A stretch of DNA of 64,000 nt from an uncultured Elusimicrobia bacterium (GCA_903873295.1 CAIQNV010000049.1:20041-84040); one strand, 5' to 3'; counted from the first letter of the stretch, positions 8,384-28,775 are shown. Numbers and translations: made by a program. The notes: generated by a model not told the origin, from the letters alone.

Positions 8384-8412
8384 TTGACTTACGGTTGCCG
8401 CTAACCTATAAT
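8384..8412 (+). promoter_or_regulatory. Sigma70-type promoter of the FecR/barrel/giant-protein/PorV locus
   Basis: TTGACT (8384-8389), 17-nt spacer, TATAAT (8407-8412). Confidence 0.75.
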
Positions 8413-8488
8413 CAAAAGTGAGCAGTTCAGGGGACGTTAATAAGCCCTAAGGGTGGGCTATGCCCGCGTTATAAAACAGGAGTTCCTA

Positions 8489-9934
8489 ATGCGTTATCTA
8501 TTTTCTTTGATATTGCTGGCCGGCCTTTCCGTCTTTTCCGGCGCCGCCTACGTTAACTCGCTGCAGGGCGACGTCGACCTGAAAAAAGCCGGCGCCTCCG
8601 AATGGGTCCGCCTTACCGGGGCCGATAAAACGCCTCTCGGCGCGGGCGACGAAATGCGCACCGCCCGGGCCTCCACGGCGGAGATCTACATGGACGACGG
8701 CTCAAAGGTGAAAGTAGCGCCGCTTACGGCCTTCAAACTGTCGACGGAGAACAAGGAGGCCGTCTCGCTCGGCCTGTATTTTGGCCGGGTGCGCTCCTGG
8801 GTGAAGAAATTCTCGAGAAAATTCGAAGTGCGCACCCCGTCGGCCGTCTGCGCCGTGCGCGGCACCGATTTCATGGTTTCCGCCGACGGCGACGGCAACA
8901 GCCGGGTGGAGGTCTACGAGGGCACCGTGCTGACCGGCGACTCCAAGGGTAATTCCGGGCTGGTGCGCGAAGGGCAGTTCTCCGAGATCCCCAACGGGGG
9001 GAAAATGAAGGACCCGGGGCAGAATCCCAACGAGCCCGGCGACATGAACTCCTCGCTGGGAGACGCCAGGCAGCTGGCCAGGGCCGAGATCTACAGCGAA
9101 ATTTCAAAAGAGGACGTGCTGGCCCGGGCGCAGGAGGAGATGCAGTCGGCGGAGTACCAGAACCGCAAGGTGGCCATAGACGCCTTCGGCAACCGGGTGC
9201 GCATGGAAGAGTACACCATAAGGCCCGCCGCCGACCAGTTCAAGTACGTAGTGCTCAACACCCGCGCCGACCGCTTCGACTTCGGGAAGATCCTGTTCAC
9301 CTTCAACGCGGCCCTGCCCGCCGATCTCTCCCAGGCCACGCTGAACATGATCTCCTCGCCCGGTTCCACGGCGCCGCAGTGGCAGCTTGTAGCCATGAAC
9401 AGCGTGATGAGCAATACCACCGACAAGGTTACCGAAGACGCCTCGGGGGGCGGCATGGCCTACAACGGCAGCCTGACCGATCCGCGCTATAATCTGGTTT
9501 TCGGAAATTATTCCTTTTACGCGGCGGGGCCGGCGGAGGCCAATGATAACGGCGGGCTGGGGAAGCTGTTCTGGACCAAGACGAATTACAATGTGCCCGC
9601 GAACCATTATGACTCAATTTCCTTCCTGGGGAGCGCCGCTCCTTTAATAGACGCCTCCAGCCCTTCCGGCGCCGATGTTTTTCACACCTTCGCGAAGAAC
9701 ACCTATAACGACGGCACCTGGATAGCGGCGGAGGACTTCGTGCTTTTTAATAACGGGGACCTTCTCGCCGCCGGGGAGTTCAGCCAGGGCCTGGGCAACG
9801 GCAACACCGTTGACGAAATAACCGACAAGCTTAATTTTCAGCGCGTTTACACAAGTTCGCTTTTCGGCGGGCGCACCATCGACGTGATGTACTCCGCCAA
9901 GCTGCTGAAGGAAATCGGCCTGCTGCGGTTCTGA
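8489..9934 (+). CDS. Exported FecR-domain protein with unknown C-terminal region
   Basis: RBS AGGAG before ATG 8489; signal peptide; FecR-like GDEMRT...FEVRTPSAVCAVRGTDF...VEVYEGTV. Confidence 0.8.
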   Translation: MRYLFSLILLAGLSVFSGAAYVNSLQGDVDLKKAGASEWVRLTGADKTPLGAGDEMRTARASTAEIYMDDGSKVKVAPLTAFKLSTENKEAVSLGLYFGRVRSWVKKFSRKFEVRTPSAVCAVRGTDFMVSADGDGNSRVEVYEGTVLTGDSKGNSGLVREGQFSEIPNGGKMKDPGQNPNEPGDMNSSLGDARQLARAEIYSEISKEDVLARAQEEMQSAEYQNRKVAIDAFGNRVRMEEYTIRPAADQFKYVVLNTRADRFDFGKILFTFNAALPADLSQATLNMISSPGSTAPQWQLVAMNSVMSNTTDKVTEDASGGGMAYNGSLTDPRYNLVFGNYSFYAAGPAEANDNGGLGKLFWTKTNYNVPANHYDSISFLGSAAPLIDASSPSGADVFHTFAKNTYNDGTWIAAEDFVLFNNGDLLAAGEFSQGLGNGNTVDEITDKLNFQRVYTSSLFGGRTIDVMYSAKLLKEIGLLRF

Positions 9935-9978
9935 GGAAGGGCGGCGGGTCAATGAACGGAAGGATTTCTGGAGGAATA

Positions 9979-11229
9979 ATGCAGTTCAATTCTGTGAATA
10001 AAAAAACCAAGTTCCTGCTGGCGGCCGCCGTAGTTTTGCCTTTTTCCCTCTGCTCTCTGCCCCCGCTTTACGCGGCGATGAAAATAATACCCGTGGCCGA
10101 TATTTCCCTGCTGGGCGGAAAATATTTCCTGGACTCGCAGGCCGCCGCCTTCCAGGGCCGCGTGGACGCTTTTATCTCCCCGGCGATCACGCTGGCGGAG
10201 AACCATGACCTGCTCCCGGTCTATTCCGGCAACTATTCGGGCACGCAGGACATACAGGAACTGGCCGGCGGCGGCGTGCTTACCCGCAAGCGCCAGACGC
10301 ACACTTTTTCCCTGAAATATATCTACACCAGCGATTTTAACAAGTATAAGCCGCGCCTCTCTTATTCGAAGGCGGGCATAAATGAAACTAAGGACGAGAA
10401 GTGGGGCGACGGACTTTTCGACTATGCCACGCTCTCTTTCGGGTTCGAGGCCGAGCAGGAGCGGCCGCGCGGGACCTATACCGAATCCTACGATTATTAC
10501 AAGGTGGGGTATCCCAATTACAGCACGCTGCTGTCGCGGTCGCAGTCCGTCTTTAACGACACCACCACCTTCAACGAGCTTTCCACCAACGCCGGGGAAA
10601 ATCCGCTGGACAATATCAGCCACCGCCTGGCTTTGGGCTATGCCTGGTTCCCCGAGCCGCTTAATATGAAGGCCAACTACGACTTTACCTACCGCACCTA
10701 CGCCGAGCAGGCGATAGCGGCCAGGCCCGCCACGGGGCAGTCGCCCTTCAAGAGCGACAAGCGCTCCGACATAATGCAGAATTTCAGTCTTAAGGCCAGC
10801 CGGGCGCTTAAGCCGCTTTACCTGAGCGCCGTCGCGCGCCTGGGCTGGCTAAGTTCTAATCAGGGGTCTTACGACTCTGTCCGCAGCAAGTACATGAAGG
10901 ACTATTATAGTTATATGGATTTTTCCATAAGCCCGGCGATGGGCCTGGTGCTGGAGAACGGAGCGCAGTTTAATTTCGGCCTGGACTGGCGGCGGGTTTA
11001 CTACCTGGGGCGCCTTAAACAGGGCAACACCGGAAATTACGGAAGCTCCGAGATAACCCAGACCTTCTGGCTTACTTCGCTTTCCGCGCGCTATCCAGTA
11101 GCCAAAAGGTTCTTCGCCCGGGCGGCCTGCAACTACCAGATCTCTTCCTCCAATATGCGTTACGAGGAGAGCTACCGGTATAACTACAGGGCCAGCACCT
11201 ACCTGCTGGGTCTGGAGTGGGAGTTTTAA
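9979..11229 (+). CDS. Putative outer-membrane beta-barrel protein
   Basis: GGAGG RBS; signal peptide; Tyr/Phe-rich amphipathic strands; C-terminal beta-signal-like LLGLEWEF. Confidence 0.7.
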   Translation: MQFNSVNKKTKFLLAAAVVLPFSLCSLPPLYAAMKIIPVADISLLGGKYFLDSQAAAFQGRVDAFISPAITLAENHDLLPVYSGNYSGTQDIQELAGGGVLTRKRQTHTFSLKYIYTSDFNKYKPRLSYSKAGINETKDEKWGDGLFDYATLSFGFEAEQERPRGTYTESYDYYKVGYPNYSTLLSRSQSVFNDTTTFNELSTNAGENPLDNISHRLALGYAWFPEPLNMKANYDFTYRTYAEQAIAARPATGQSPFKSDKRSDIMQNFSLKASRALKPLYLSAVARLGWLSSNQGSYDSVRSKYMKDYYSYMDFSISPAMGLVLENGAQFNFGLDWRRVYYLGRLKQGNTGNYGSSEITQTFWLTSLSARYPVAKRFFARAACNYQISSSNMRYEESYRYNYRASTYLLGLEWEF

Positions 11230-11310
11230 GAAGGGGCAGCGGCGCGGACGGAAGAGTGTTTTAGAAATTGATTTTATTCCCAGATGTAAGTTTTCAGCCG
11301 GAGAAAAATT

Positions 11311-14300
11311 ATGCGCAAGATAAAAAACATTTTCATAAACCTCCTGGGGGCGGCGCTTTTAGCCGCCGGCTCCGCCGGACCGGCGCTGGCCCAGTTCACC
11401 GGGGATTTCTCCCAGCCCGGCGGCGCGGTTTACGACGGCGGCTCGGAGGACCAGGCTCACCGCGTGGCGGTGGATACCGTGGCGCTTAACGGGCCTTTTA
11501 TTTATGTGGCGGGCACTTCGGAGTTCGACTCCCAGACTACCGGCTTAACCGCTAAGTACGACAAATTCGGCGTGCTGGCGGCCTCCGCGGTCTTTACCGG
11601 CCCTGGTTCCAGCTTTGCAGTGAGCGACGGCATAGCCATAGGCGCCGACAATATCTTCGTCGCCGGCAGTGTAGGGGGGGGGCTATGCGTAGCGCAGAAG
11701 TATGATAAAAACCTGGTTTTTCAATCTTCAGCTACGTACTCTTTCAGCATTCAAGAGTGCGTCGGGAACGATATCACCCTCAGCAAGACCGGGAACCTTT
11801 ATGTGACAGGCCACACGGGCTACACCTCGGAGTACCGTTCATTGCTGATAATAAAATACGACGAGAACCTGAATTTCGCGAACGCCGTCACTTTCAGCGG
11901 CGGAGTTTACGATAAAGGAATGTCGATAAAAACCGATGACCGCGGGGATGTCTACGCGGTCGGCTATTCAAGCGCCGCCGGCAATTTGCAGATACTTACG
12001 TTGAAATATGATCCGGCGCTGGTTTTCATAAGCTCGGCGGTTTTCAGCATTCCCGCGGGAAGCCCTGAGAAACGGGTGTCCCTGAGCTTTGGCCAGGATT
12101 CCGTTTATGTGGCGGGTATAGATTTTGACAAGGGAGTTCTGCTTAAGTATAGCCTCGACCTGGTCTTTAAATCCTCGGCGGCTTTCAATCCCGGCGCCGC
12201 CAGCGGTTGGGAGGGGGTCGGAGTCAACAGCCTCGGAGACGTTTTCACCACCGGCAATGTGTTTAACGGCACCGACCTCGATTTCCTGACCGCCAAATAC
12301 ACCCCTGATCTCGTGTTCGTTTCCTCCATAGCGTACGACGGCGGCCACGAAGATGTGGCCCTGGACGTCGCGCTGGACGCTTCCGATAATCTTTATGTAA
12401 TTGGCGTTTCGTCCAACAGCTTAAATAACGACTGGCGCACCCTGCGCTACCCGTCGTCCGCCTTCGGCGCGCCCGCCGCGCCCGCGGGCTTCACCGGGAA
12501 TTTCGCCGCTCCGGGAGGCGCCGGGTTCGACGGCGGGGATATGGACTACGGCACCGGGACGGCGTTCTATGGCTCCAATGTTTATGTTGTCGGGATTTCT
12601 TCTTCAGCCGGTGTTTTGTCCAGCCTTATTGTCAAATACGACCTGGCCGGGAATGTCGTCTCCTCCGCCACTTCCGCCGCTTTCGGCGACGCTGGCTTCT
12701 TTGATGTGAAGGCCAATGCCAACGGCGTATATGTAGCAGCTCAGGGGGAGGGATTTCTTACTGTGAAGTACACTCCTGACCTGGTTTTTGTGTCTTCGGC
12801 CGTTCTCGCCGGAGATTCCAGCGCGCGCGATCTTGCGTTGGATACGGGCGGTAATGTCTACGTGATAGGCTCCAATTGGGGCGACGCGGGAGGCAACAAC
12901 GATTATAAGTTCGTGAAGTATAGCAAGGATCTGGCCCAAATTGGTTCGCCGGTCACCTTCAACGCCGGAGGCATGGATGAGGGCAGAGGCATAGCCGTTG
13001 ATAACGGCAATGTTTACATCACGGGCGACAGCCTGATAGGCAACACTACTTATTTTGCAACCGCGAAATTCGATTCGTCGTCGATGGCTTTTATTTCTTC
13101 CGCCTCGTACGCCGGCGGTTATCTCGACGGGCCGGCCCATGAACGCTTAGCTGTAAACCCGGTTACGCACGACGTTTATCTGTTGGGCGCGCAGGGCCCT
13201 GAAGGCAGCAGTCATCTGGTAACTGTGAAATATTCGCAGAACCTGCAGCAGATGGTGGCGGATATCTTCCCCGGCGACGGCTCCAGCAAGGGCAAAGTGT
13301 TTGGCACGGATATAAAACTGGATGCTGACGGCAACGTCTACTCGCTCGGTAAAGATTCCTATGAGACCGGCGGGATAACTTATGAATATGCGCTGGTGGT
13401 AAAATACACGCCCGGCCTTGTTTTCCTCTCCAGCGCTGCAAGCTCCGCCGGGTCCATTAAATATAACGGCTTTGCCATCGCCCTGGATACCACTACCGGC
13501 TACAGCTACGTAACTGGTCTCGCTGACGATGACGCGGGCCAGGTGGACATGCGCACCGTGCGCTTCGACCCGCTAGGCGGGGTGGCTCCGGTCGCGCACG
13601 CCATGGGGCCGAACGAATTTATTATTAAAGAGACGGACGTCGAAGACTCCGGCGGGTTCTCCGCGTACGGCGGGGGGAAATTCCTGGTGGGCTATCAGCA
13701 CGCTACTTCAAGCATCACCGCGCGGCTCGTTCTGCCGGACGGGACCTTAGTGGGCTCCGAAATCACTTTCAACACCACTACCGAATACGGCTCCGGCGGC
13801 TGGCCCGCTTTCGCGTTCGGCGGCACTGATTTCCTTATGGCCTGGGCCTGCGACCTGCCCGGGTATCAGGGGCGGATACGCGGCCAGCGCATCGACACCT
13901 CCGGGAATAAAGTCGGCTCCTCTTTCTGGATCAGCTCTACCAGCGGTTTCGACTCGCATCAGTTGGGAAATATCGCATTCGACGGTGTAAATTATTTTGT
14001 CGTCTGGAGCGCGAGCGATACGGTGAATTCGTACGATAACATGTACGGCCAGTTCGTAAGCACGGCCGGCGTTTTAGTCGGCTCAAGGCTTACAATAGGG
14101 GCCGGCGGAAAAGACGGCACGGTCGCGTACGGCCATGGCAAATATCTCGCTGCCTGGCGCAACGACGGCAATTACGGAGATGTCGGCCCGGTAAAAGGCC
14201 GGCTGATACTTCCTAATCAGATTTTCGGCGGCACGGAGTTCGTGATCGACGCGAGCCCCGCCCCGAGTTATAATCCTGTAATAGTTGCGGCGGACAATAC

Positions 14301-17300
14301 GAGATTTCTTGTCGCTTTCCATGATGAATGGAGTGCTCCCTGCAGCGAAGTGAACCCTGATTGTTCCGTTTCCTCCCACTTGTTCGGTAAATTCGTGAAC
14401 GCTGACGGCACGGTGGCGCCTTCCACTTTCACCATTTCAGACAGCCCCGATGCGCAGTTCTTGCCCGAGCCGGTCTGGGACGGATCCAAATACCTGATAA
14501 CCTGGAACGACGCCGATGGGCTTTCCACCGCTACCGTGCATATGCGGTATTTCGACGCTTCCGGCAATCCGCTGGACGCTGATACCGTGATCGCTTCCGC
14601 GGTATCGGGAAGGATCCCGTTCAGCCTCGGATTCTCCTATGACAGCGCGGATAAAAAATTCTTTGGCGGAGTAAATCGATACCCTGTAACCGGCAGTTAC
14701 GACGATGCGACCACCGATCTCTACGGCCTTATCCTCACCACTACGAGCAGTGGTGCCGGTTTCACCGGGAATTTCTCGGAATCCGGCGGCGCGGTTTATG
14801 ACGGCGGGAACTCTGACGTAGGCGCGGATATCGCTCTTAACCCGGCCACCGACGACACTTATGTGGTGGGAGCCTCTTCGGTTTCCGGTCTGAGTCAGGG
14901 ACTTGTGATCAAGTATAACGCGGCCGGAGTGATGGTCGCGTCCGCGCCGGTCACGGATACCGGCGGCATGTATCTGTCGGGCGTCGCGCTTAATGGCAAC
15001 GGCATCTACGTAGCCGGCGGGGTCTATAATACGAATAATTTCGTGGTTAAAAGGTACGGGCCCGGGTTGAATTTGATATCCAGCGCGGTTTTACCCGGTG
15101 TGCACACGCCAAGAGTGGCTTTGGACGGCGCCGGGAACGTCTATCTTGCCGGTTCTTCCGACGGCGACCATAACTATCATCTCGCCAAATACGGCCTCGG
15201 TCTCGGCTTTATCTCCAGCACGACCTTTGATGCCGGCGGCGTCGACAGGGCGATCGGAGTGGCGGTGGACAACGGTTACGCTTACGTCACCGGGTACGCC
15301 CTGATAAGCAACAGCACCTATTATGTCACCGCGAAGTTCGACGCGGGCTCATTGGCCTTTGTTTCTTCCGTTTCATATGCGAACGCTTATGCGGAAGGAG
15401 GATCTTTTGAACGCCTGGCCGTTAACCCGGTCACTCATGAGGTTTATCTTGTGGGCACGCACGGCACGGAAAACAACAGGCAGATGGTGACGGTCAAATA
15501 TTCCCAGACTTTGCAGCAGCTCGGCGAAGCCATCTTCCCCGGCGGCAGCTATGGGCTGGGTGCCGACGTGAAACTGGATACCGCCGGCAATGTGTACGCG
15601 CTCGGAAAGGAGTATAACGGCTCGGACTACGCGTTCGTCGCCAAGTATAATTCCGCCCTGGTTTTCCTTTCCAGCGCGGCAAGCGCGTCCGTTCCCGGGA
15701 GCTTCACCGGCATGGCCGTTGCCCTTGATACCACCACCGGCAATAGTTATGTGACGGGAATTAAATCCGACGGCGGCATCGGGCCAAAAGACCCCACGAA
15801 CGATATCCGCACCGTGCGCTTCGCCCCGCTCGGCGGGGTCGCTCCGGTCGTGCACGCCAAGGGGCCTAACGAGTTTGTTATCAGTGAGACCGACGGCAGG
15901 GATTCCGGCGGCAGCGTCGCATATGGAAACGGCAATTTTTTGACCGTGTATCAAAAGAACGATGTCAACGTCGAAGCAAGGCTTTTTGATACGAGCGGCA
16001 ATCCGGTCGGCGCCGAAATCGTTCCCGCCGGGAATACGGACTGTCAAGCCGGGCAGGGGCCTGCCGTGGCTTTTGACGGTACAAATTTCCTGATGACATG
16101 GGGCTGTCGTTTGTTGTCTAACACATCGGCGATCCGTGGTCAGCGCGTTGATTCGTCGGGTAATACAATAGGTTCGGCGTTCGCCATAAGCGCCTTCACA
16201 GGTTCGCGGGGCGATGGGGATGTGGCGTTTGACGGCACCAATTATTTCGCGGTCTGGAGTTCGACCGAAAGCGGCGCGTGGAATATCTACGGACAGTTCA
16301 TTTCAGCGACAGGCGCGCTGGTCAACTCCCGCATAACAATAGCTACCCCGGCGACGGCCTGGATAGACCACACACCGGTAAAGTATGCCGGCGGAAAGTA
16401 TCTGGTCACATGGACTGAAGGAAACAACGTGAAAGGCCGGATGGTACTGCCGAATGGCAGCCTTTATGGCTCTGAAATAGCCGTTAATGTGGATTCCCTT
16501 ACGAGCGATGGTCCCACGGTTATAGCGTACGATCCCGGTTCTGCAAAATTCCTTGTGACATATAACAACGGGATTAACGTCAACAGTAGACATTTGTATG
16601 GCAGATTTGTAGACCTGTCCGGTGTTGCGGGCTCCAGTTTCACTATTACCGAAGCTGCGGGCAATCAGTTCGGCGCGGTTCCTGTGTGGGACGGTTCTAA
16701 ATATCTGATAACGTGGAGTGACGGCTATCCACTTTCTACGGCCACTGTTCATAAACGTAATTTCAGCGGCGCGGGCATTCCGCTTGATACGGATGCCATC
16801 ATCGCGTCCAATGAGTCCGGTAAAGTTCCGTTGAGTATTGCCTCGGCCATTGCCGGCGGAAAGGTGTTTGTGCTCGTCAACAGAGGCGATATAGGGTCGT
16901 ATAACGATGCCAGCCTCGATCTCTACGGCCTTATCATCACCACCACCGCGATCCAGCAGGCCGCGGGGTTCACCGGGAATTTCTCGCAGGCGGACGGGGC
17001 CGGGTTTGACGGCGGGGCTATGGACTTCGGCACGGCCGCCGCGTTCTATGGCTCGAATGTGTATGTCGTCGGGCTGTCCTCGCCTACCGGCGCCATTATC
17101 GTTAAATACGACCTGGCCGGGAACGTGGTGTCTTCCGCCACTTTGGGCGGGCTGGAGTCGTTTGACGGCGTGGCCGTTAATGCCAACGGCGTCTACGCAG
17201 CCGGCAAGGGCGTGACGGGGACGGGGTTTGTGACCGCGAAGTATAATTACAGCCTGACCCTTACTTCCGCGGCGGTCCTTCCCGGGCAGAACCACGCGCG

Positions 17301-20300: not shown

Positions 20301-23300
20301 GCCTTCGGCCTATGATAATACGCAGTATTTCGGGCGCGAGCGCCTCTCGTATATGAGCGGCCTGAGCGGCCCGGGCGGCGGCATAGCCGTCGACGGTACC
20401 TATGTCTATCACGCTTTCGGCGGCAGCTCGGAAGGCGGTTCCGCCGGGTTCGGGCTGCGCAAGTATAATACGGACCAATACCTGGAATGGACCAAGTTCT
20501 TTAACCACGCGGGCGACCGCGCCTATAATGTGGCCAATGTGACGCGCGACGCCGCCGGCAATTTCTACCTGGTGGGCAGCCAGCGGCTCCCTGATACCGC
20601 GGCGGGCGCGCCTGATTATCTGGCGGCGGACAAGGACCTGTGGATCGCCAAGCTGGACGCGGCGGGCGACCTGGTCTGGTCCTACTCGGCCGACGCTTCA
20701 GGCATAAACCAAATGGATGAGCTTTACGACGTCGCTGTGGAGGAAATCGGAGCGCAGAAATTCCTGTACGTAACGGGCGTCGCCGCCACAGTTTCCAGCG
20801 GCCTTGATATGGTGGCGCGGAAATACGATGTTTCACAATCGACTTATATCGCGCCGCTGTGGACCTATTCCGAGCCCGGCGCCGGCGAAGACGTCGGTTA
20901 CGGCGTAGCCGTGGGGACCGGCGCGGTCTATCTGTCCGGCGCCGTGTTCAACACGGATAAGGATATTATCGTGCGGGCGCTCAGCAAGACCAGCGGCCTG
21001 CCCGTCGGGGGCCCGATAGTGATCAACTCCGGGCACGGCGACGACGCGGGCTATGACCTGGCCGTCACCACCGCCGCGCCGGGGTACATCTATGTGGCCG
21101 GCTCGGTCGGCACCGCGAGCGAGGGGACTAATGCCGCGCTCTTCAAGTATAGCCTGGCCGGAGCTTTAGTGTGGGACCGCTATTACAACGGCAGGGCCGG
21201 CGCGGACGACGCCCTCCTCGGAGTGAAAGCCAGCGGCAGCGGGGTAATTGTCGCCGGCTATGAAACCACCTACGACCAGGGAAAGAACAGCATTTACCGC
21301 AAGTTCAGCGCCGCAGGAACCGAGGAGTGGAGCCGCGGCTTTGACTTCGCCGGCGGCGGCGATGACGAGGCCCATACCCTGGCGCTGGACGCCTCGGGGC
21401 GGGTCTATTCAACGGTCTCCCTATGGAGCAAGAATCCCGGCTTCTACTACTTCCCCGAGCCCAGCTTCGGCCTGATGGCCGCCGCGAATTATGTGCCGGG
21501 CTCGGTGCGGCTGGACTGGATGAGCCAGTACGAAGTGCCCGCCGGCTCGCTCTTCAGTATTCAATACTCCACCAACAGCGGCCAGGTCTGGGATCCGGCC
21601 GGCGCCCAGGTGCGGTTCGGCGCCGACGCTTACATCAGGGCGGGTATGAATGTCACCCGCGCTGTTTATGGTCTGGATAACGGCCGCGATATGCAGGGTG
21701 CGCCCGTGGGCCCCGGCTACTTCTTCAGGGTGTGGTTCTCGACCGCGGCGGGGATCTTTACCCCGGTGCCCGGCGTGGCTTCGGCCCGCGCCTCCGACGG
21801 CTGGGCGTTCGAGAATATGGTCATGTATCCTAACGAAGCCAAGCTTTTCGTAATGGGCAATAACCAGCAGGGAACTTCCTCCGTAAATATATCGGGAGAA
21901 AAAGAGCTGCCCGGTATAGCGCGCGACGCCGCCGGCAGCCTCTATATGCTGGCCAATATGGACTGGAACAGCAGCGGCGGCTTTGCCATAAAGAAATTCA
22001 GCTCCGCCCTGACGCCGGTCTGGACCAGGTATTACGCTCCCGGCGAGCGGTTCGCGGTTAAAGCCAACCGGATGGCGGCTGACGCCGAGGGGAATCTCTA
22101 TCTGACCGGCTACGAGCGCGGTCCTGACAGCTCCAACGGCAAGGATATTTTCGTCATGAAGTTCGGCAGCGGGGGTCTGGTCTGGAAATCCACCTATAAC
22201 TTCGCCGGCGGGGACGATACCGGCTACGGCGTGGCGCTTGACGCCTCCGGCAATGTTTACGTGGCCGGCTCGGTGTACACCGGGTCCGACGACGATATCT
22301 TCGCCGCCAAATTCAGTCCGGCGGGCGTGCTGCTGGATACCGTGACATACTCCGGCAGCGGCAGCGGGCCGGATGCGGCCTACGGCATAGCGGTGCAGGA
22401 TGCAAATCTGTACCTGACCGGCTCGTCATATGAGACGGATCACGGCTCTCATTTCTGGACGGGGCTTTTCAGCTCTTCCGGACTCGACCAGCTCGGCACC
22501 TCCCTCACCGGCGGCGACGCCGCCGGCTCGGGTTACGACGTCGCGGTAGATACTTTAGGCTACGTCTACGCAGCGGGCGAGATATACGGCGCCGATACCG
22601 CCAACGACGCTCTGGTCACGAAAAGCTATGCGAACCTCGACGCCGTGCCGGGCGCGTACCCGATCCGTTATAACAGCCCGGGCAACGCCAACGACGCCGC
22701 CTATGGCCTTGCCATAGACGCCGCCGGAAGCGTTTACGTCACCGGCTCCCAGGAGCGCTACGACATAAACCAGGACAAGAACCTCTGGATCCGCAAGTAT
22801 GCGCGGGACGGTTCCGAGCTCTGGAGCCAGGAATTCCATTCCAACGCCATCCCCGGCGATCCTTACAGCGCGGGCGCCAACTCCGACGAGGGTTTCAGCC
22901 TCGCTGTGGGTACTATGGGCTTTGTGTCGGTGAGCGGCAGGTTCAACGACTACTACGGCCTGTACCGCTACCGCCAGACCAGCACGCTGGCCGTCAATCC
23001 CACGCTTACCGTGGTGGTATCCAGCGCCTCCTGCTCCTCCTGCGCGTCCTTCCGTTTCGGGGGGGTGGGCGTGGCGCTGATCCCTTACTCGCAGACCGGC
23101 GGCATTGACGCGGCCAGCATAAGGAGCTCCGTCACTTCCCCTTCCGGGACGGCTTCTTTTCAGGTGCCTTCCGGCAAGCAGTATTTCATCGCGCTGGACA
23201 AGCAGGGCTATAACCCCAACATAAAAGACCAGCAGATGGATCCCTACGGGAACTTCTTCGTGCAGCTTAACGCCGATATCACCAAGCAGTACACCCTGTC

Positions 23301-26300
23301 GCCGCGCCCCGCCAGCGACCCGTATTACCCGCTGACGGTGACGGTCACCTCCGCTACCGCCAGCGACTATATTATGGCGGAAGTGTTCTTTACCCAGACC
23401 GGCGAGAAAGCGGCTTACGGTATAGCACAGGTGCCGGTAAACAGGAGCAGCGTGACCTTCACGGTCGCCAACGTGCCTCCGGCGGACGCGGGCGCGTACA
23501 CGCTGGGCGTGACCATCCCCGGCCGCGGCCTGGCGCGCAGCCTTCCTATGAACGCGCTTTTCCCGCAGACGAGTTCGTATATAGTCAACATGTCCACCTC
23601 CTCCGGCGCCGTCGCGACCACCGGCGGTTTCGACGTGGGGGCTTCCACCACGCCGCCGTCGGTGGAAGGCGTGGCCAGGAACGCGGGCACCTGGGCCCCG
23701 GTGGAAGGGGTGCGCGTGCGGATGTGGAATTCAGTGCAGAACTGCATGAGCGGGAACTGCGATTACAATGTCTACGAGACGCTCACCGACGTGACCGGCA
23801 AGTATTCATTCTACAACGTGGTAAGCACTCCCGCGTATTACAACCTGTCCGCCCAGAAGGCGGGCTATAAGCGGGCCTGGGACGGCGGGCTTACGATAGC
23901 CGCCAACGCGGCTACCATCTACCGCGAGTTCCGGCTGGAGGAGTCCACCTATACCCTGCGCGGCGTGATACGCTACCGGGACGTCCCGGTGCCTAACGCC
24001 GACGTTATGGTTTGGGGCGACTACAGCTGGTACCAGAACGGCTCCGACAGCTACCGCGGCGGCCGCGGCATGGATACCGACGCCAGGACCAAGACAGGGG
24101 CCGACGGCTCCTTCGTGTTCAGCGGCGCCACGCTGAACGGCCTGCCTGACGGACAGCTGCGCATGAACGTGTCCTTCTTCGGCAACTGGGTGGACCTTAA
24201 TCAGGGCAATAACCAATCCAGCTCGGCGGATGACGTGCGTATCATCATCTCCAGCGACTCCGCCACCGGAGCAGGCAATTGCGCCAAGGGCAGAGTTTGG
24301 AAACTTTTGGCCGAAAGCGGCGCCTGCCAGGAGTCCGGGGATATCAACTTCAACATCATGCCCCAGGCGCAGAACGATTATGCCACGCTCAGCGGCTCCG
24401 TGACCTTTGTCACGACTTACACCGTAAGCGGTACCAACCCGCTGGTGATAAGCTCCATGGCGCCGGTGACGGTGATGGCTATGCAGGAGTGCAGCGGCGA
24501 CTGCAAAGGCCGGTCCATGGGCTTCGCGGTGATCAGCGGCACCTACGAGCTCAATACGGCCACCTACAGCATAACTCTGTCCACCGGCATCTCCTATTAC
24601 ACCCGCATAACCTCGAACGAATGGGGCGAAACCAGCGCTTTCGACGACAGGGCCGATTTCCGCTCCACTACCACGCTCTCGGTCGTCATGAACTTCGTGA
24701 TTACGAAAGCGGGCTCGATGAAAGGCGTGGTAAAAATGCCGGACGGCTCCAACTACAAGCCGAATTACAACTTCGCGTCGGCGGAGCAGTACCACAGGAT
24801 CGATATCAACGTAGCCGGCCAGAACGTGAACGTGAACGAGGGCTGGAGCGTGGACGATTACGGCGCCTTTGAGTTTCCCAACCTGGCGCCGGGTCTCTAC
24901 ACCATCACAATGAGGCCCCAGGGTCTCGGTTTCCACTGGGCCGCGCCGGCTCTGACCGGAGTGGCCGTTGTGGCCGGGAAGACTACGCAGGTCACGCTGA
25001 AACTGGAGGATGGCCTGGTGGTGCAGCCGCAGATAATAGGCCTCCCGGAGATCTCCACGCCTACCTGGTCTTACCTGATGATACCGGTGGAATCCGGTAC
25101 CGAGATGAACCAGAAGAAGATCACCGAGATGTTCTTCGGCTCCGACGTCTTCGCCTTCAACTACAGCACCAGCACGCATCTCTGGGACAAGAAGGTGATG
25201 CTTACCGGCCAGTACGACTTCTATCTCATGATGGGCGCGCGCTACAGCCCGGAGGGAGGCAACAACCAGCCCCTGAGCTTCGACCAGTTCGGCAACTTCA
25301 TCGGCAAGGTAAAGGGCTTTGCCGTGCAGCGGGTGGAAAACTCGCCCAACCTGGGCACCGAGGCCCAGCCCATACCGGTTAACGTGCTGGGCTCGCTCGG
25401 GCAGGACTCGTTCGGGGGCACTATCGTCGGAGAGCGGGTCTATACCGATGCCGACCTCGACAGGATCTTCTCCAACATGAACGAGATCTACCCGGTTATT
25501 CCGACCGTCATGGTGTACGACGCGGCCGGGGACCTGCGCGGCTATACCGCCGGCCTGCCCGGCAAAGAGGACTTCAACGCGTTCTGGAACGCCCTGCTTG
25601 CCAAAGATAAGGCGCAGATGAAGGCTTACTTCGCGGCGCATCCGAGCCGGTTCATGGTGCCCGGCCTGCCGCCGGGGCGCTACACGGTGGTATTCTCCAA
25701 CCCCAACTACCCGCCCATAGCTAAAGAGCTGGACATTCCGCTGGCGTCGTCTTTCAACGGGGTTTACGCGTTCAACTTCGAGGAGCAGAGCGTGCGCACC
25801 GGCGATATTTACGGCACGGTCAGGAGCAGCGCGACCGGCCTGGGCCTGCCCAGCGCCGTGGTCTACCTGAAGCACCGGACCGTGGAGAAGTTCGCCGATA
25901 CCGCCGCCGACGGCTCTTATTCCTTCTCCAACCTCCCCCCGGGCATCTACCGCCTGGAGGTTACGCGCGAAGGCTTTGTGAAGACCGGCCAGAAAACTTC
26001 CCTGACCGGCTCGCTGACGGGCGACGACGAGTCGAAGCTGGACTTCTATCTTACGCCGTCGCAGACTAACATGACGGGCAAGGTCTACCTGAGCAAGTTC
26101 CCCGCCCCGCTGACGAAGTCGGGCGTAAAAATAGTGGCTTACGACGAGACCTATAACACAGAGCACCCCTCGGATTATCTGCCCAAGATAGAGGCCACCA
26201 CCAACGACTCCGGCGAATACGAGATCGCCGGGGTAGTGCCGGGCCATAACTACAGGGTCTCGGCCTTCTACGGCGGCAAGCTGCCCGCGACGCTTGACGT

Positions 26301-27645
26301 CTCCGGCGACGCGGTGACCGAGGGCGTCACCTACCTGCCGGATATAGTGCTGCGCGAAGTTCCGCCGCAGATCATGGTGAAGGTGCGCAAATCGCCCGAC
26401 TCGGTCAATAAAGTGGACGTCACCATTAAATCGCCCAAGCAGCTGGTTTCTACGCCGGTCTGCAAAGTGAACCCGGGCGAGCTCTATGTCTCCAGCACGG
26501 CCGTCAGCCTGGCGCTGGTGCCCGGGCCTAACAACACCTATGAGGGCCAGTTCACCGTATCGCGCGGCCAGGCTTTCTACAATGTGCATGTCTCGGCCGG
26601 CGACGGCAGCAACAAGATGGAAAAATCCGTCACCTACAGCCCCAACAACCAGGCCAAGACCGAACAGTACATTCAGGATGAAGCCATACAGGGCGGCGAG
26701 GTGCAGATGGACAAGGAGTCGGAGGAGTATTCCGGCCTGGAGCTGGACGCCGGCGGCCTCTCCTACTCCACCTTCAGCGCCACGGCCAGCCAGGACTTCG
26801 GCAATCTGGTGGGCGGCTTCTTCAGCGCGCTGCCTTCCGTGCGCACGATAAAGACCGCAAAGGGCGACTTGAACATCACGCAGGCCATGCAGGACCTGAT
26901 GGCTTCCGAGGTCTACAACATGGAGCTTGAGAACGCTTCCGCCAACAAGCCGTTCACGCTGACGCTTAAATACGACAAAGAAAAAGCCGGCGGCAACGGC
27001 AATCTGCGCATCTACCAGTACGACGACGCAAGCGCAGGCTGGAAAGAGGTGCCCGGCGACTACACTACGGACCCGATGCTGGGAGTGCTGTCCGTGGGCG
27101 TGGCCGGCCTTTCCAACGCGCACGAGGGCACCCGCAGCGCAAGCACGCCGCTGGGCCGCAAGCGCTTCGGGATGAGCGCGGTAGTCAACGGGCGTTATGT
27201 GCCGTCGGCCGCGGGGACCTCGCAGAGCGGGCGCTTCGCGGTGTTCACCGCCAACCCGCCCACCGGCACGGCGGCGTTCAGCTCCGCGCTCGTGGTCTAC
27301 AACATGCCCAACCCGTTCAACCTAAAGAGCAAGAGCGTTTCTCTGGGCACGGACATCGGCTCGTCGGGCATAGCCAACCCGTATCCCACGAACGGCACGG
27401 TCATAAAATACAACCTGCCGGCGGGCAAGTCGGGAAATCTGAAGTTCGTCATCTACAATATGGCGGGCGAGAAGGTGCGCACTATCGACGAGGGCTCGCG
27501 CACCGGCGGTCAGATATACTACTCCGAGTGGGACGGAAGGAACGATACCAACCAGGAGTGCGCGTCCGGAGTGTACTTCATGCTGACCTACATGGACGGC
27601 AAGAAGCTGGGGACCAAGGCGCACAAGCTGGCGATAATAAAGTAG
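11311..27645 (+). CDS. Giant (5444 aa) secreted surface protein: SBBP-like beta-propeller modules, FnIII-like domains, carboxypeptidase-regulatory-like (transthyretin-fold) repeats, C-terminal FlgD/T9SS-CTD-like domain
   Basis: Single uninterrupted ORF; signal peptide to ALA-Q (aa 27/28); DxxGNVYVxG repeats; YSFSNLPPGIYRLEVTREGF; C-terminal VYNMPNPFN...IYNMAGEKVRTI...WDGRND...ASGVYF...KLAIIK. Confidence 0.9.
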   Translation: MRKIKNIFINLLGAALLAAGSAGPALAQFTGDFSQPGGAVYDGGSEDQAHRVAVDTVALNGPFIYVAGTSEFDSQTTGLTAKYDKFGVLAASAVFTGPGSSFAVSDGIAIGADNIFVAGSVGGGLCVAQKYDKNLVFQSSATYSFSIQECVGNDITLSKTGNLYVTGHTGYTSEYRSLLIIKYDENLNFANAVTFSGGVYDKGMSIKTDDRGDVYAVGYSSAAGNLQILTLKYDPALVFISSAVFSIPAGSPEKRVSLSFGQDSVYVAGIDFDKGVLLKYSLDLVFKSSAAFNPGAASGWEGVGVNSLGDVFTTGNVFNGTDLDFLTAKYTPDLVFVSSIAYDGGHEDVALDVALDASDNLYVIGVSSNSLNNDWRTLRYPSSAFGAPAAPAGFTGNFAAPGGAGFDGGDMDYGTGTAFYGSNVYVVGISSSAGVLSSLIVKYDLAGNVVSSATSAAFGDAGFFDVKANANGVYVAAQGEGFLTVKYTPDLVFVSSAVLAGDSSARDLALDTGGNVYVIGSNWGDAGGNNDYKFVKYSKDLAQIGSPVTFNAGGMDEGRGIAVDNGNVYITGDSLIGNTTYFATAKFDSSSMAFISSASYAGGYLDGPAHERLAVNPVTHDVYLLGAQGPEGSSHLVTVKYSQNLQQMVADIFPGDGSSKGKVFGTDIKLDADGNVYSLGKDSYETGGITYEYALVVKYTPGLVFLSSAASSAGSIKYNGFAIALDTTTGYSYVTGLADDDAGQVDMRTVRFDPLGGVAPVAHAMGPNEFIIKETDVEDSGGFSAYGGGKFLVGYQHATSSITARLVLPDGTLVGSEITFNTTTEYGSGGWPAFAFGGTDFLMAWACDLPGYQGRIRGQRIDTSGNKVGSSFWISSTSGFDSHQLGNIAFDGVNYFVVWSASDTVNSYDNMYGQFVSTAGVLVGSRLTIGAGGKDGTVAYGHGKYLAAWRNDGNYGDVGPVKGRLILPNQIFGGTEFVIDASPAPSYNPVIVAADNTRFLVAFHDEWSAPCSEVNPDCSVSSHLFGKFVNADGTVAPSTFTISDSPDAQFLPEPVWDGSKYLITWNDADGLSTATVHMRYFDASGNPLDADTVIASAVSGRIPFSLGFSYDSADKKFFGGVNRYPVTGSYDDATTDLYGLILTTTSSGAGFTGNFSESGGAVYDGGNSDVGADIALNPATDDTYVVGASSVSGLSQGLVIKYNAAGVMVASAPVTDTGGMYLSGVALNGNGIYVAGGVYNTNNFVVKRYGPGLNLISSAVLPGVHTPRVALDGAGNVYLAGSSDGDHNYHLAKYGLGLGFISSTTFDAGGVDRAIGVAVDNGYAYVTGYALISNSTYYVTAKFDAGSLAFVSSVSYANAYAEGGSFERLAVNPVTHEVYLVGTHGTENNRQMVTVKYSQTLQQLGEAIFPGGSYGLGADVKLDTAGNVYALGKEYNGSDYAFVAKYNSALVFLSSAASASVPGSFTGMAVALDTTTGNSYVTGIKSDGGIGPKDPTNDIRTVRFAPLGGVAPVVHAKGPNEFVISETDGRDSGGSVAYGNGNFLTVYQKNDVNVEARLFDTSGNPVGAEIVPAGNTDCQAGQGPAVAFDGTNFLMTWGCRLLSNTSAIRGQRVDSSGNTIGSAFAISAFTGSRGDGDVAFDGTNYFAVWSSTESGAWNIYGQFISATGALVNSRITIATPATAWIDHTPVKYAGGKYLVTWTEGNNVKGRMVLPNGSLYGSEIAVNVDSLTSDGPTVIAYDPGSAKFLVTYNNGINVNSRHLYGRFVDLSGVAGSSFTITEAAGNQFGAVPVWDGSKYLITWSDGYPLSTATVHKRNFSGAGIPLDTDAIIASNESGKVPLSIASAIAGGKVFVLVNRGDIGSYNDASLDLYGLIITTTAIQQAAGFTGNFSQADGAGFDGGAMDFGTAAAFYGSNVYVVGLSSPTGAIIVKYDLAGNVVSSATLGGLESFDGVAVNANGVYAAGKGVTGTGFVTAKYNYSLTLTSAAVLPGQNHARDLALDTGGNVYVVGANDTETGYKFVKYSADLAQQGSPVVFNAGGAATGRGIAVDSGNIYVTGDSLIGAATYYVTARYNSSLAFVSSVAYAGGYSNSESLGAKLAINAATHEVYFVGTHGAHTDLIDSNILTIKYSQNLVQLAAALAPHYYAEGTDIALDNAGNVYTLGVNQVINNGPDYPVVLKYNSDLVFLSSATRQMTNWYAPFGLALDNATGESYVTGLDDGGGISSDMRTVRFAPLGGSVPVVYISTRDVSPAVYLAGQEAAALRITPHTLSGTVSFTGLQIAVNPAGAYANVASAALYADLDSDQIWNPRNDLLLSSGAVTSAGHYFDLSGMGGVIDPDTVVLFITLTPAISAVDSSINVAVPSSASFHTNGDMAQQTIYPITSTPTLVTYLAGLTDLTAEPGANLNSVSLSWTYPQDITSGHYIIRYSTNTADLDNPNLNAVTGAISGITAGAYGSYTASGLTPVTSGLRVFPYYFAVWLYNGISTSAVSSTLARNLYFPAAAVSDKDAALTLRTGMSLTAENAARFAKSTAAAGAYSALTFYDGGKYFIALNTPDGKTQFYYDQTYLALRDLAADPAGNAYGLIQKANNVSLVVKLGPDGAVLWTSPFTSSSSETARALTYGAGAVYYAATGFQPGSAGQDIKLRKLRDTDGALLAVYSSSPAGSYDEVNSLAFVQDASGKYVYAAGASGSPLYGMLYKFADTGTAFSVSPSAVAGSWPVRYVNPGGGDARALAVKADSLNNTLVVVGAEQRNDLNQGSNIWLNRYGPYGAPIFANPTRYNNAQSNSDDIPVGLDFDSFGNIYVSGYTDMWNLGQGYNMLLGKFGPGGQFLSARIYDSGSGSNDTGAGVLVSTNNYAYVAGMFGAAGTFGVYSLPLGSSVNAQFFTAAEGPYTGSADLTWNYTGSLPAGSTYYVQYSTALAPVWSRASAQLAVNAGPSYSGAVQSQRLGGLPALRYPGQDGQETRGNAYKFKVWITSGGLTTELPVAQTFARTPSAYDNTQYFGRERLSYMSGLSGPGGGIAVDGTYVYHAFGGSSEGGSAGFGLRKYNTDQYLEWTKFFNHAGDRAYNVANVTRDAAGNFYLVGSQRLPDTAAGAPDYLAADKDLWIAKLDAAGDLVWSYSADASGINQMDELYDVAVEEIGAQKFLYVTGVAATVSSGLDMVARKYDVSQSTYIAPLWTYSEPGAGEDVGYGVAVGTGAVYLSGAVFNTDKDIIVRALSKTSGLPVGGPIVINSGHGDDAGYDLAVTTAAPGYIYVAGSVGTASEGTNAALFKYSLAGALVWDRYYNGRAGADDALLGVKASGSGVIVAGYETTYDQGKNSIYRKFSAAGTEEWSRGFDFAGGGDDEAHTLALDASGRVYSTVSLWSKNPGFYYFPEPSFGLMAAANYVPGSVRLDWMSQYEVPAGSLFSIQYSTNSGQVWDPAGAQVRFGADAYIRAGMNVTRAVYGLDNGRDMQGAPVGPGYFFRVWFSTAAGIFTPVPGVASARASDGWAFENMVMYPNEAKLFVMGNNQQGTSSVNISGEKELPGIARDAAGSLYMLANMDWNSSGGFAIKKFSSALTPVWTRYYAPGERFAVKANRMAADAEGNLYLTGYERGPDSSNGKDIFVMKFGSGGLVWKSTYNFAGGDDTGYGVALDASGNVYVAGSVYTGSDDDIFAAKFSPAGVLLDTVTYSGSGSGPDAAYGIAVQDANLYLTGSSYETDHGSHFWTGLFSSSGLDQLGTSLTGGDAAGSGYDVAVDTLGYVYAAGEIYGADTANDALVTKSYANLDAVPGAYPIRYNSPGNANDAAYGLAIDAAGSVYVTGSQERYDINQDKNLWIRKYARDGSELWSQEFHSNAIPGDPYSAGANSDEGFSLAVGTMGFVSVSGRFNDYYGLYRYRQTSTLAVNPTLTVVVSSASCSSCASFRFGGVGVALIPYSQTGGIDAASIRSSVTSPSGTASFQVPSGKQYFIALDKQGYNPNIKDQQMDPYGNFFVQLNADITKQYTLSPRPASDPYYPLTVTVTSATASDYIMAEVFFTQTGEKAAYGIAQVPVNRSSVTFTVANVPPADAGAYTLGVTIPGRGLARSLPMNALFPQTSSYIVNMSTSSGAVATTGGFDVGASTTPPSVEGVARNAGTWAPVEGVRVRMWNSVQNCMSGNCDYNVYETLTDVTGKYSFYNVVSTPAYYNLSAQKAGYKRAWDGGLTIAANAATIYREFRLEESTYTLRGVIRYRDVPVPNADVMVWGDYSWYQNGSDSYRGGRGMDTDARTKTGADGSFVFSGATLNGLPDGQLRMNVSFFGNWVDLNQGNNQSSSADDVRIIISSDSATGAGNCAKGRVWKLLAESGACQESGDINFNIMPQAQNDYATLSGSVTFVTTYTVSGTNPLVISSMAPVTVMAMQECSGDCKGRSMGFAVISGTYELNTATYSITLSTGISYYTRITSNEWGETSAFDDRADFRSTTTLSVVMNFVITKAGSMKGVVKMPDGSNYKPNYNFASAEQYHRIDINVAGQNVNVNEGWSVDDYGAFEFPNLAPGLYTITMRPQGLGFHWAAPALTGVAVVAGKTTQVTLKLEDGLVVQPQIIGLPEISTPTWSYLMIPVESGTEMNQKKITEMFFGSDVFAFNYSTSTHLWDKKVMLTGQYDFYLMMGARYSPEGGNNQPLSFDQFGNFIGKVKGFAVQRVENSPNLGTEAQPIPVNVLGSLGQDSFGGTIVGERVYTDADLDRIFSNMNEIYPVIPTVMVYDAAGDLRGYTAGLPGKEDFNAFWNALLAKDKAQMKAYFAAHPSRFMVPGLPPGRYTVVFSNPNYPPIAKELDIPLASSFNGVYAFNFEEQSVRTGDIYGTVRSSATGLGLPSAVVYLKHRTVEKFADTAADGSYSFSNLPPGIYRLEVTREGFVKTGQKTSLTGSLTGDDESKLDFYLTPSQTNMTGKVYLSKFPAPLTKSGVKIVAYDETYNTEHPSDYLPKIEATTNDSGEYEIAGVVPGHNYRVSAFYGGKLPATLDVSGDAVTEGVTYLPDIVLREVPPQIMVKVRKSPDSVNKVDVTIKSPKQLVSTPVCKVNPGELYVSSTAVSLALVPGPNNTYEGQFTVSRGQAFYNVHVSAGDGSNKMEKSVTYSPNNQAKTEQYIQDEAIQGGEVQMDKESEEYSGLELDAGGLSYSTFSATASQDFGNLVGGFFSALPSVRTIKTAKGDLNITQAMQDLMASEVYNMELENASANKPFTLTLKYDKEKAGGNGNLRIYQYDDASAGWKEVPGDYTTDPMLGVLSVGVAGLSNAHEGTRSASTPLGRKRFGMSAVVNGRYVPSAAGTSQSGRFAVFTANPPTGTAAFSSALVVYNMPNPFNLKSKSVSLGTDIGSSGIANPYPTNGTVIKYNLPAGKSGNLKFVIYNMAGEKVRTIDEGSRTGGQIYYSEWDGRNDTNQECASGVYFMLTYMDGKKLGTKAHKLAIIK
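11395..18040 (+). repeat. Intragenic module repeats A1-A2-B1-A3-B2-A4 (~365-390 aa each)
   Basis: A modules start FTG(N/D)F at 11395, 12490, 14761, 16969; B modules start HA(M/K)GPNEF at 13597, 15853; identical CGCACCGTGCGCTTCG at 13552, 15808, 17998; identical GATCTCTACGGCCTTATC at 14716, 16918. Confidence 0.9.
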
Positions 27646-27670
27646 GCCAGGGAAGGGCAGCGTTAAAGAG

Positions 27671-27769
27671 TTCACCGCTGAGACGCGGAGGACAGAATGA
27701 GCAGAGAGTAGGGACACGGATTAATATTTTCTCTTCCGAACTCTGCGACCTCTGCGCCTCCGCGGTGAA
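27671..27769. repeat. Imperfect palindromic (REP/MITE-like) element
   Basis: TTCACCGCTGAGACGCGGAGG ... CCTCTGCGCCTCCGCGGTGAA inverted arms with internal CTCTGCG repeats. Confidence 0.7.
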
Positions 27770-27842
27770 TATCGGTAAATCGGCCCGATTAGTGAATTGA
27801 TTGATTTGTTTTTATGAGGAAAAGAATCGATTGAGGTAATTT

Positions 27843-28775
27843 ATGAAAAAGATATTTATGCTCTACCTGCTGCTGGCTCTGCCGGCGGAGGCTTACGCCT
27901 CGGGGGCCGGGACTACGGCGGCGCCTTTTCTTAAGGCGGCCATGAGCCCGCGCGCGGTGGCCCTGGGGGGGGCTTTCAGCGCCCTGGCGGACGATTCCGG
28001 CGCGGTCTTCGTTAACCCGGCGGGTCTGGCGTTGTTCGACAGGCGGGAGGCGGCGCTCGATTTCAGCACCTACCTGCAGGACGCCAAGATGGGCAACCTT
28101 TCCTACGCCGGCATGATGGGCTTGCACAGGTTTGGCCTTGGAGTCACTTTTATGACGGTGGGGGGGATCGCAAAGACGCTTAACGACACACCCTCATCAG
28201 GCGCCGTGCCGGAGCTGGGCACTTTTGACGCCAGCGATATGGCCGTCACCCTGGCCTACGCCAAGAAAGAATTCGCTCCCGAGCTGATGCCGCGCCTGGA
28301 CGGCGGCTTCTCGCTTAAATTCATCCGCTCGGCCATAGATACCAAGACCGCCTTCGCGGTCGCGGTCGACGCGGGCGTCATCTACCGGACCACGGAAAAA
28401 ATCAACCTGTCCATGGCGCTCCAGAATTTGGGCACCAAAATGAAGTTCGTGGAGGAGTCGGACCCGCTGCCGCTTAACCTGCGCGCGGGAGCTCTTTACA
28501 AGGCCTCGGAGAAACTTAATGTGGCGGTCGAGATAAACGAATATCTGCAGGATAATAAGATCTATCCCTCTCTCGGCGCGGAATACTGGTTCCGCAATGC
28601 CCTCGCCCTGCGCGGCGGCTACAAGTTCGGCTACGATACCGCCAACCTGGGGTCCGAGGTGGGTCTCAGTCTGGGCTTCGGAATAAAGGTGCAGGGCCTC
28701 GGCGTCGATTACGCCTTCCTGCCTTTCGGCGACCTGGGAAGCATCCACCGCTTCGGCGTCTGGATGCAGTTCTAG
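27843..28775 (+). CDS. PorV/PorQ-family outer-membrane barrel (T9SS shuttle-like)
   Basis: Signal peptide; GTTAAPFLK...SPRAVALGGAFSALADDSGAVFVNPAGL N-terminal signature; DYAFLPFGDLG.IHRF and terminal Phe. Confidence 0.88.
   Translation: MKKIFMLYLLLALPAEAYASGAGTTAAPFLKAAMSPRAVALGGAFSALADDSGAVFVNPAGLALFDRREAALDFSTYLQDAKMGNLSYAGMMGLHRFGLGVTFMTVGGIAKTLNDTPSSGAVPELGTFDASDMAVTLAYAKKEFAPELMPRLDGGFSLKFIRSAIDTKTAFAVAVDAGVIYRTTEKINLSMALQNLGTKMKFVEESDPLPLNLRAGALYKASEKLNVAVEINEYLQDNKIYPSLGAEYWFRNALALRGGYKFGYDTANLGSEVGLSLGFGIKVQGLGVDYAFLPFGDLGSIHRFGVWMQF

Follow-up and report, generated by a model that had tools for sequence, protein, structure and literature searches.

A stretch of 64,000 nucleotides (nt) from an uncultured Elusimicrobia bacterium (GCA_903873295.1, CAIQNV010000049.1:20041-84040; the whole stretch is called the window below) carries, between positions 8,384 and 28,775, four co-oriented genes, which encode in this order a secreted FecR-domain protein, an outer-membrane beta-barrel of about 16 strands, a giant protein and a second outer-membrane barrel of the PorV/PorQ family. 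[quoted passage not shown] An earlier, sequence-only reading of the window had proposed a cargo-specific, PorV-anchored, T9SS-like module outside the Bacteroidota, in which the FecR-domain protein and the 16-strand barrel would act as translocation or assembly partners. The module itself is retained here, the role given to these two proteins stays a possibility only, and the earlier reading had missed that the cargo-barrel pair of this locus is not unique (the genome has about 19 of them) and that an SprA-type translocon is encoded outside the window. According to reviews, type IX secretion is confined to the Bacteroidota or to the FCB (Fibrobacteres, Chlorobi, Bacteroidetes) group. No paper describing a PorV carrier or a T9SS-like system in Elusimicrobia was found in the texts searched, supplementary files lying outside the search; in passages of PMC7031533, PMC12204202 and PMC8542988, T9SS terms occur just among the references or in text on other matters.

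The giant protein consists, from its N- to its C-terminus, of a signal peptide, SBBP beta-propeller blocks arranged in super-repeats of about 750 amino acids (aa), CarboxypepD_reg-like domains, a conserved stalk and a C-terminal domain (CTD). The ending NPFN...WDG...SGVYF...KLAIIK, which had been noticed earlier, is present, and a CTD profile of our own matches residues 5354-5444 of 5444 (E 2e-19), i.e., the extreme C-terminus of a protein with a Sec signal peptide as judged by inspection. Scanned alone, the CTD also exceeds the cut-off of FlgD_ig (32.4 bits; cut-off 27). The last 450 aa are the best-conserved part of the giant among its orthologues, which are 55-82% identical in the stalk and 66-81% in the CTD; over the first 400 residues identity falls to 25-61% or no match is obtained, and the first 120 residues have no match in four of the nine orthologues of the same genus. 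This gradient fits a fibre that would be fixed at its C-terminus and variable at its outer end.

Using the CTD profile, which had been seeded from the tails of open reading frames (ORFs) adjoining PorV-like genes, we found 25 ORFs in the genome that end in a domain of this type. Most of them are also recognised by models of the T9SS sorting domain (TIGR04183 in 23 of the 25 at E<=0.01, PF18962 in 13) and, in 20 of the 25 each, by the CTD portion of the PorZ model (best E 1.4e-18) and that of the PorU model; only three were matched by the type-B model. Type-A CTDs have a near-invariant lysine close to the C-terminus, which contacts PorV in the solved Flavobacterium structures (PMC10994853). In agreement with this, 23 of the 25 CTDs have K or R six residues from the C-terminus; columns of G, W and Y are invariant.

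The last product of the locus matches the PorV/PorQ family model NF033709 along model positions 1-326 with 186.8 bits (cut-off 90), and the solved PorV of Flavobacterium johnsoniae (6h3i_F) at E 4.3e-8. On the two narrower models it reached 137.5 bits for PorQ (NF033711; cut-off 220) and 80.9 bits for PorV (NF033710; cut-off 250). Its orthologues are 49-97% identical. The sequence-only reading had suggested co-folding of the CTD with this barrel, and an interface is indeed predicted: with the mature barrel (alignment of 38 orthologues) and the C-terminal 119 residues of the giant (alignment of 10 rows), three runs scored 0.94, 0.95 and 0.94 (the best of three controls scored 0.00; among reference pairs, 58 of 80 solved complexes and 2 of 110 mismatched ones attain the mark used), which shows a likeness to the solved PorV-CTD complexes and not binding by this particular pair, because such complexes have already been solved. 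At least 91% of the contacts were common between runs, the predicted local distance difference test (pLDDT) value of the partner was at least 88, and the predicted interface contains the lysine six residues from the end.

Throughout the genome, genes for CTD proteins and for PorV-like barrels lie together. There are 27 matches to the PorV family in about 24 ORFs, 19 of which reach the cut-off, and 18 of the 25 CTD ORFs are followed by a co-oriented PorV-like gene that starts -123 to +800 nt after their stop codon. In one further case the PorV-like gene is 2.7 kb away, with a small FecR-like gene between the two (about 19 pairs in total); the remaining six CTD ORFs have no paired PorV-like gene. 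Of 121 genomes of the phylum, 119 have matches to the PorV family, the larger ones usually with at least 16 scored candidates. Outside the present genome, the pairing was checked on 20 PorV-family genes, taken from the top of the list in five distant Elusimicrobiota genomes of five families, and an ORF ending in a CTD was found within 1 kb upstream of 14 of them. The PorV-like barrels might alternatively be FadL-type channels for small molecules, unrelated to the large proteins encoded beside them, and the barrel of the locus does show some resemblance to these (26.1 bits with the Pfam model Toluene_X/FadL, below its cut-off, and weak FadL matches in the PDB, E ~0.4); given the far higher score on the PorV/PorQ family model, the pairing with CTD ORFs in both samples and the predicted CTD-barrel interface, we consider this very improbable.

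Two observations concern the variety of such loci and barrels. A more complex locus, on contig 99 (16418-35135), encodes a 3,877-aa CTD giant together with a protein of 576 aa, a small FecR-like one of 242 aa, a PorV-like barrel, a protein of 638 aa with a C-terminal Phe and another barrel that is only weakly PorV-like. Elsewhere, several of the PorV-like barrels reach 450-870 aa through C-terminal extensions that look TPR-like by eye (e.g., contig 4, 22815-24536; contig 64, 27151-28821; contig 90, 26670-28163).

The order of the four genes, the conservation of which had been named as a test in the sequence-only reading, is kept among relatives. A match to the 16-strand barrel was found in 23 of 24 genomes of the same genus and in both genomes of a second family, but in none of 14 small genomes of a third family. 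In ten matching genomes with long contigs (nine of the same genus and one of the second family), the succession of FecR-domain protein, barrel, CTD-ending giant and PorV-like barrel was found without exception. In these ten relatives the shortest giant has 2,448 aa and the longest about 8,000 aa, and the one from the other family is barely alike.

A search of the genome for SprA and for PorK, PorL, PorM and PorN, likewise proposed in the sequence-only reading, gave a divided result: an SprA-type translocon was found, the other four were not. The SprA-like protein is encoded by a single ORF of 1,798 aa (contig 82, 32103-37499, minus strand), three collinear segments of which match the SprA/Sov model TIGR04189 (137 bits, E 3.8e-40, against a cut-off of 200). 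A profile built from 13 Elusimicrobial SprA-like orthologues matched only SprA in the PDB (6h3i_A, E 2e-36); no PDB match was obtained when the single ORF was searched with phmmer, nothing meaningful was found in its Pfam scan, and the Pfam model SprA_N matched nothing in this genome and nothing in the control genomes either. SprA-like ORFs of 1,700-1,900 aa were matched in 114 of the 121 genomes of the phylum, and four of the seven genomes that miss them also have no or very weak matches to the PorV family. The SprA-type translocon, encoded elsewhere in the genome, probably carries out the translocation, and the locus is therefore not self-sufficient. The SprA-like gene divergently adjoins lptF and lptG, and a comF-like gene follows.

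Of the remaining T9SS components, GldM and GldL had no match in this genome, nor at E<=0.001 in any of 61 (GldM) or 41 (GldL) genomes of the phylum, and both were found over their cut-offs in all five Bacteroidota control genomes. The GldK model matched only generic FGE-sulfatase domains (at most 63.9 bits; cut-off 350), which lack a KLMN-like gene context, and GldN and the PorP family had no match in searches for which there was no positive control. All nine PorU matches cover only model positions from 949 onward, i.e., the CTD part, in a search that found PorU in three of the five control genomes. On contig 87 (7022-18482), five paralogous secreted proteins with near-identical N-termini are encoded around one of the FGE-sulfatase ORFs that weakly match GldK.

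A complete canonical T9SS, for which the giant would be ordinary cargo as the sequence-only reading had pointed out, was thus not found. Such a system might nevertheless be present if its motor, ring and sortase were too divergent for models trained on Bacteroidota; the only core part found, SprA, is itself far below the cut-off (in this as in all the 121 genomes), the PorU search missed two of its five controls, and those for GldN and PorP had no positive control. We hold this to be unlikely in view of the absence of GldM and GldL matches against five of five controls, the FGE-sulfatase ORFs without KLMN-like neighbours, and the presence of a carrier gene for each cargo, unlike the situation in Bacteroidota, where a single PorV serves many cargos (PMC5562754).

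According to the reading that we favour, a reduced T9SS relative with one carrier per cargo, the giant would be exported by Sec, and its CTD would bind the extracellular loops of its own PorV-like barrel. The barrel-cargo pair would then pass through, or leave, the SprA-like pore in the way known for complexes of PorV and cargo in Flavobacterium. As no sortase was found that would cut off the CTD, the cargo would stay non-covalently on its barrel, like PorZ on PorQ and PorU on PorV in Porphyromonas. The conserved C-terminal stalk would then lie at the membrane, with the propeller blocks of the variable N-terminal part directed outward, an arrangement that would suit an adhesin.

Several points weigh against this reading. 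The giant's CTD stays just below the curated cut-off of TIGR04183 (22.1-22.5 bits; cut-off 23), neither the PorV nor the PorQ equivalog cut-off is reached by the barrel, and the SprA-like protein exceeds the family cut-off in none of the 121 genomes. The pairing count of 18 in 25 is partly circular, because the seeds of the CTD profile were chosen by their PorV-like neighbourhood. In one of the five distant genomes a CTD ORF was upstream of only one of five PorV-family genes, and the mirror-tree (co-duplication) correlation is only weak (Spearman 0.31 between CTD and barrel distances over the 19 pairs; 356 of 10,000 permutations were as high). The score of the co-folded complex may reflect the likeness to solved complexes, and the CTD alignment comprised only 10 rows. 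The searches could have missed relatives of GldL and GldM that have diverged as far as the SprA-like protein, the incomplete or absent positive controls for PorU, GldN and PorP limit these negative results, and the genome (3.49 Mb in 157 contigs) is 89.9% complete. Finally, it is from a parts list, a gene pairing and a predicted interface, which are observed, that we infer the export of the giant, its surface location and exposure, and the retention of its CTD.

The first two genes of the locus encode proteins with no counterpart in the scheme above. The FecR domain of the first product was recognised by Pfam with 63 bits (cut-off 24). Among its 174 homologues all the named ones belong to Elusimicrobia, and because orthologues of 479-482 aa dominate, the gene probably starts at ATG 8489. 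Behind its signal peptide the protein has a FecR/PupR-type beta-sandwich (about residues 30-190), which is followed by two helices and then by a conserved, beta-rich domain at the C-terminus (about 231-481). In its structure model (pLDDT 87.0) the FecR domain superposes on that of PupR (6ovm_R; Z 17.8, root mean square deviation (rmsd) 2.3 A, 138 residues aligned). The best structural matches of the C-terminal domain (231-481) are Omp85-type barrels with Z ~6, which is below the noise level of the tool, and a search of the Atlas with this domain gave no usable match. Neither an anti-sigma domain nor a membrane helix precedes the FecR domain, which begins about 10 residues past the signal peptide, in agreement with the earlier statement that an evident cytoplasmic anti-sigma part is lacking. 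In the NCBI records some of the homologues are already named "FecR family protein", and some of the barrels "PorV/PorQ family protein".

The 16-strand barrel has no family match in Pfam or NCBIfam scans, and a profile of its own family matched nothing in the PDB. This family comprises 479 representative relatives at E<=0.001, whose source names, where given, are Elusimicrobia. The model (pLDDT 82.2; the strands were counted from DSSP elements) has no plug, no periplasmic domain, no POTRA domain and no N-terminal TPR region, and its structural matches are generic (CdiB, Z 19.0, rmsd 3.8, 287 residues; chitoporin, Z 18.3; OprP, Z 17.7; a further porin, Z 17.6). The pair of FecR-domain protein and barrel occurs three times in the genome: in the present locus; in a paralogous one on contig 97, where a CTD giant and a PorV-like gene likewise come last; and on contig 111, with neither a CTD cargo nor a PorV-like gene. 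Furthermore, one database representative is a single ORF in which a full-length homologue of the FecR-domain protein (41% identity) is followed by the barrel, a single case that may be an artefact of assembly or gene calling. From the three occurrences and the fused representative it therefore follows that the pair is a unit; it accompanies only two of the 25 CTD cargos, i.e., this cargo family and not CTD cargos generally. We regard the two proteins as a tight outer-membrane module and a conserved accessory of this cargo family, which might serve as a periplasmic holder, as the fibre base or as a surface-displayed partner.

A more direct part would fall to the pair if it were the real exporter or usher of the giant, in the manner of a split two-partner system, with the PorV-like barrel as nothing but the final anchor. 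The adjacency of FecR-domain protein, barrel and giant in all ten relatives and the fused representative would agree with this, and so would the best structural match of the barrel, CdiB, which is a TpsB transporter; however, this match is tied with those to ordinary porins, POTRA and other periplasmic domains are absent from the barrel model, and the N-terminus of the giant, where four of nine same-genus orthologues have no match to the first 120 residues, is not conserved. The scarcity of the pair among the CTD cargos and the contig 111 pair without cargo or PorV-like gene, which also weaken the case for the translocation or assembly role proposed in the sequence-only reading, make an exporter improbable in our view. 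An identity as TpsB/TpsA two-partner secretion in the strict sense was rejected: the POTRA domain is lacking, no TPS domain was found in a Pfam scan of the giant, and the cargo N-terminus is not conserved.

Slam (type XI) barrels display a neighbouring cargo that has a C-terminal beta-barrel domain. The pair might similarly be a separate module that merely lies beside the fibre genes, e.g., one in which the barrel displays the FecR-domain protein, whose conserved beta-rich C-terminal domain ends in Phe. The contig 111 pair would be in line with such independence, and a Bacteroidota cluster with PF04575 (SlipAM) in 32% of its members was picked out by a language model as a look-alike of the barrel (score 0.97); but PF04575 was matched by none of 54 members of the barrel family at E<=0.1, the barrel model has no N-terminal TPR domain, and the pair precedes the giant in all ten relatives, including the one of the other family with its barely alike giant. 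A separate module is in our estimate quite unlikely, and the look-alike being the sole lead, a Slam (type XI secretion system) identity of the 16-strand barrel was rejected on account of the missing PF04575 matches and TPR region.

The features of the locus are listed in the table.

Table. Features of the four-gene locus, with positions counted from the first nucleotide of the window.
Feature	Position	Strand	Remarks
Sigma-70-type promoter-like site, TTGACT-17-TATAAT	8384..8412	+	11/12 consensus bases; consensus match only
Secreted FecR-domain protein ORF	8453..9934	+	probable start ATG at 8489
Outer-membrane beta-barrel ORF, ~16 strands	9952..11229	+	without Pfam/NCBIfam model
Giant surface-fibre protein ORF, 5,444 aa	11311..27645	+	SBBP blocks, CarboxypepD_reg-like domains, stalk, CTD
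T9SS type-A-like CTD, giant residues 5354-5444	27370..27642	+	own CTD profile, TIGR04183, FlgD_ig
Imperfect palindrome, ~100 nt	27671..27770		giant-PorV spacer; fold z-score -3.3
PorV/PorQ-family outer-membrane barrel ORF	27843..28775	+	NF033709

The layout agrees with most of what had been read from the sequence earlier: the four co-oriented ORFs lie where they had been placed, a near-consensus promoter-like site stands upstream (the interval 7200-11500 contains four sites of this kind; shuffled sequences gave 1.7 +/- 1.5), and the N-termini of all four products resemble Sec signal peptides by inspection (basic start, hydrophobic core, small-residue site). A C-terminal Phe had been reported for two products; such an ending is present, but in three of the four, namely the FecR-domain protein (...LLRF), the 16-strand barrel (...LEWEF) and the PorV-like barrel (...VWMQF). 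The intergenic gaps measure 17, 81 and 197 nt. The unit is bounded as drawn before, because opposite-strand housekeeping genes flank it on both sides (upstream, genes for a polyprenyl synthetase and a UbiA-family protein; downstream, genes for a radical SAM protein and an SPFH protein, then ligA and purH). No sigma factor and no TonB-dependent receptor is encoded among the ten flanking ORFs scanned. The suggested link to pilT- and pilC-like genes, from which adhesion or contact with prey or host had been surmised, is rejected because these genes (44.9-47.1 kb) are 16 kb away from the locus, beyond unrelated housekeeping genes.

The 197-nt spacer between the giant and the PorV-like gene (27646-27842) is longer than in eight relatives (34-85 nt). 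Its palindrome belongs to a small repeat family, with copies on three other contigs of the genome (one fuller, two partial), and no Rfam family reached its gathering score in a scan of the window. Within the giant gene there is an antisense open frame of 1,105 aa (23806-27123, minus strand); most likely it merely follows from the composition of the coding strand, which is rich in repeats. The sequencing runs listed for the genome are four DNA runs from one lake-water study, and no RNA run is listed.

If the reading as a reduced T9SS relative is true, Elusimicrobiota as a phylum have the pore, carriers of this family and the sorting domain, and no detectable motor, ring or sortase, which would show how small a working machine of this kind can be; a reduced system in this phylum would bear on the origin of type IX secretion, and it would test whether carrier binding alone holds a giant adhesin on the cell. 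The approximately 19 natural CTD-carrier pairs in one genome are a ready set for studying CTD-barrel recognition, and the FecR-fold protein with its barrel is a widespread pair, to judge from the number of representative barrel relatives. A farther-reaching proposal, which we put forward tentatively and consider rather doubtful as a whole, is that Elusimicrobiota run a minimal, perhaps ancestral T9SS, with one SprA-type pore, without GldLM motor, PorKN ring or sortase, and with an own PorV/PorQ-like carrier per cargo that stays as the anchor; the FecR-fold protein and the 16-strand barrel would be a dedicated assembly or base platform for the largest fibres, and, should release require energy, a different motor of the envelope would supply it.

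Among known systems, the FecR-domain protein is alike in the fold of this domain to the FecR/PupR anti-sigma regulators of cell-surface signalling (PDB 6ovk/6ovm, 4m0h). Unlike these, it has neither a cytoplasmic anti-sigma domain nor a membrane helix, and the barrel encoded beside it has no plug domain in the model.

The SprA-PorV-substrate translocon of F. johnsoniae (PMC10994853; PDB 6h3i, 8gl6 and others) shares with the present system homologues of SprA and PorV, and here too the CTD is predicted to lie on the barrel with a near-terminal lysine in the interface. The SprA-like protein, however, has only about 1,800 aa against 2,403 aa in F. johnsoniae (about 600 fewer), and there are many carriers, not one. 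The departure of the carrier-cargo complex from SprA is taken to be the energy-requiring step of type IX secretion (PMC10994853), and although energy for this release has been deduced to be needed there, no GldLM motor was found here.

In the attachment complex of the Porphyromonas gingivalis T9SS (PorZ-PorQ and PorU-PorV; PMC5562754), a surface protein bearing a CTD is held by a barrel of the PorV/PorQ family, as is proposed here. The barrel of the locus has a better score with the PorQ model than with that of PorV, and most CTDs of the genome match the CTD parts of PorZ and PorU. Unlike in PorU-PorV, no catalytic part of PorU was found; unlike in both pairs, the cargo usually has its own adjoining barrel gene, and the cargos are giant fibres rather than components of the T9SS. 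Cargos with type-B CTDs and dedicated PorP-like barrels (SprB-SprF and PG1035-PorP; PMC9143113) differ in that the barrels here belong to PorV/PorQ, with no PorP match, and the CTDs mostly match type A (23 of the 25, against three matching type B). The logic of one cargo and one barrel is nevertheless shared with these systems, and, as in them, a large adhesin would be anchored through a small outer-membrane barrel of its own.

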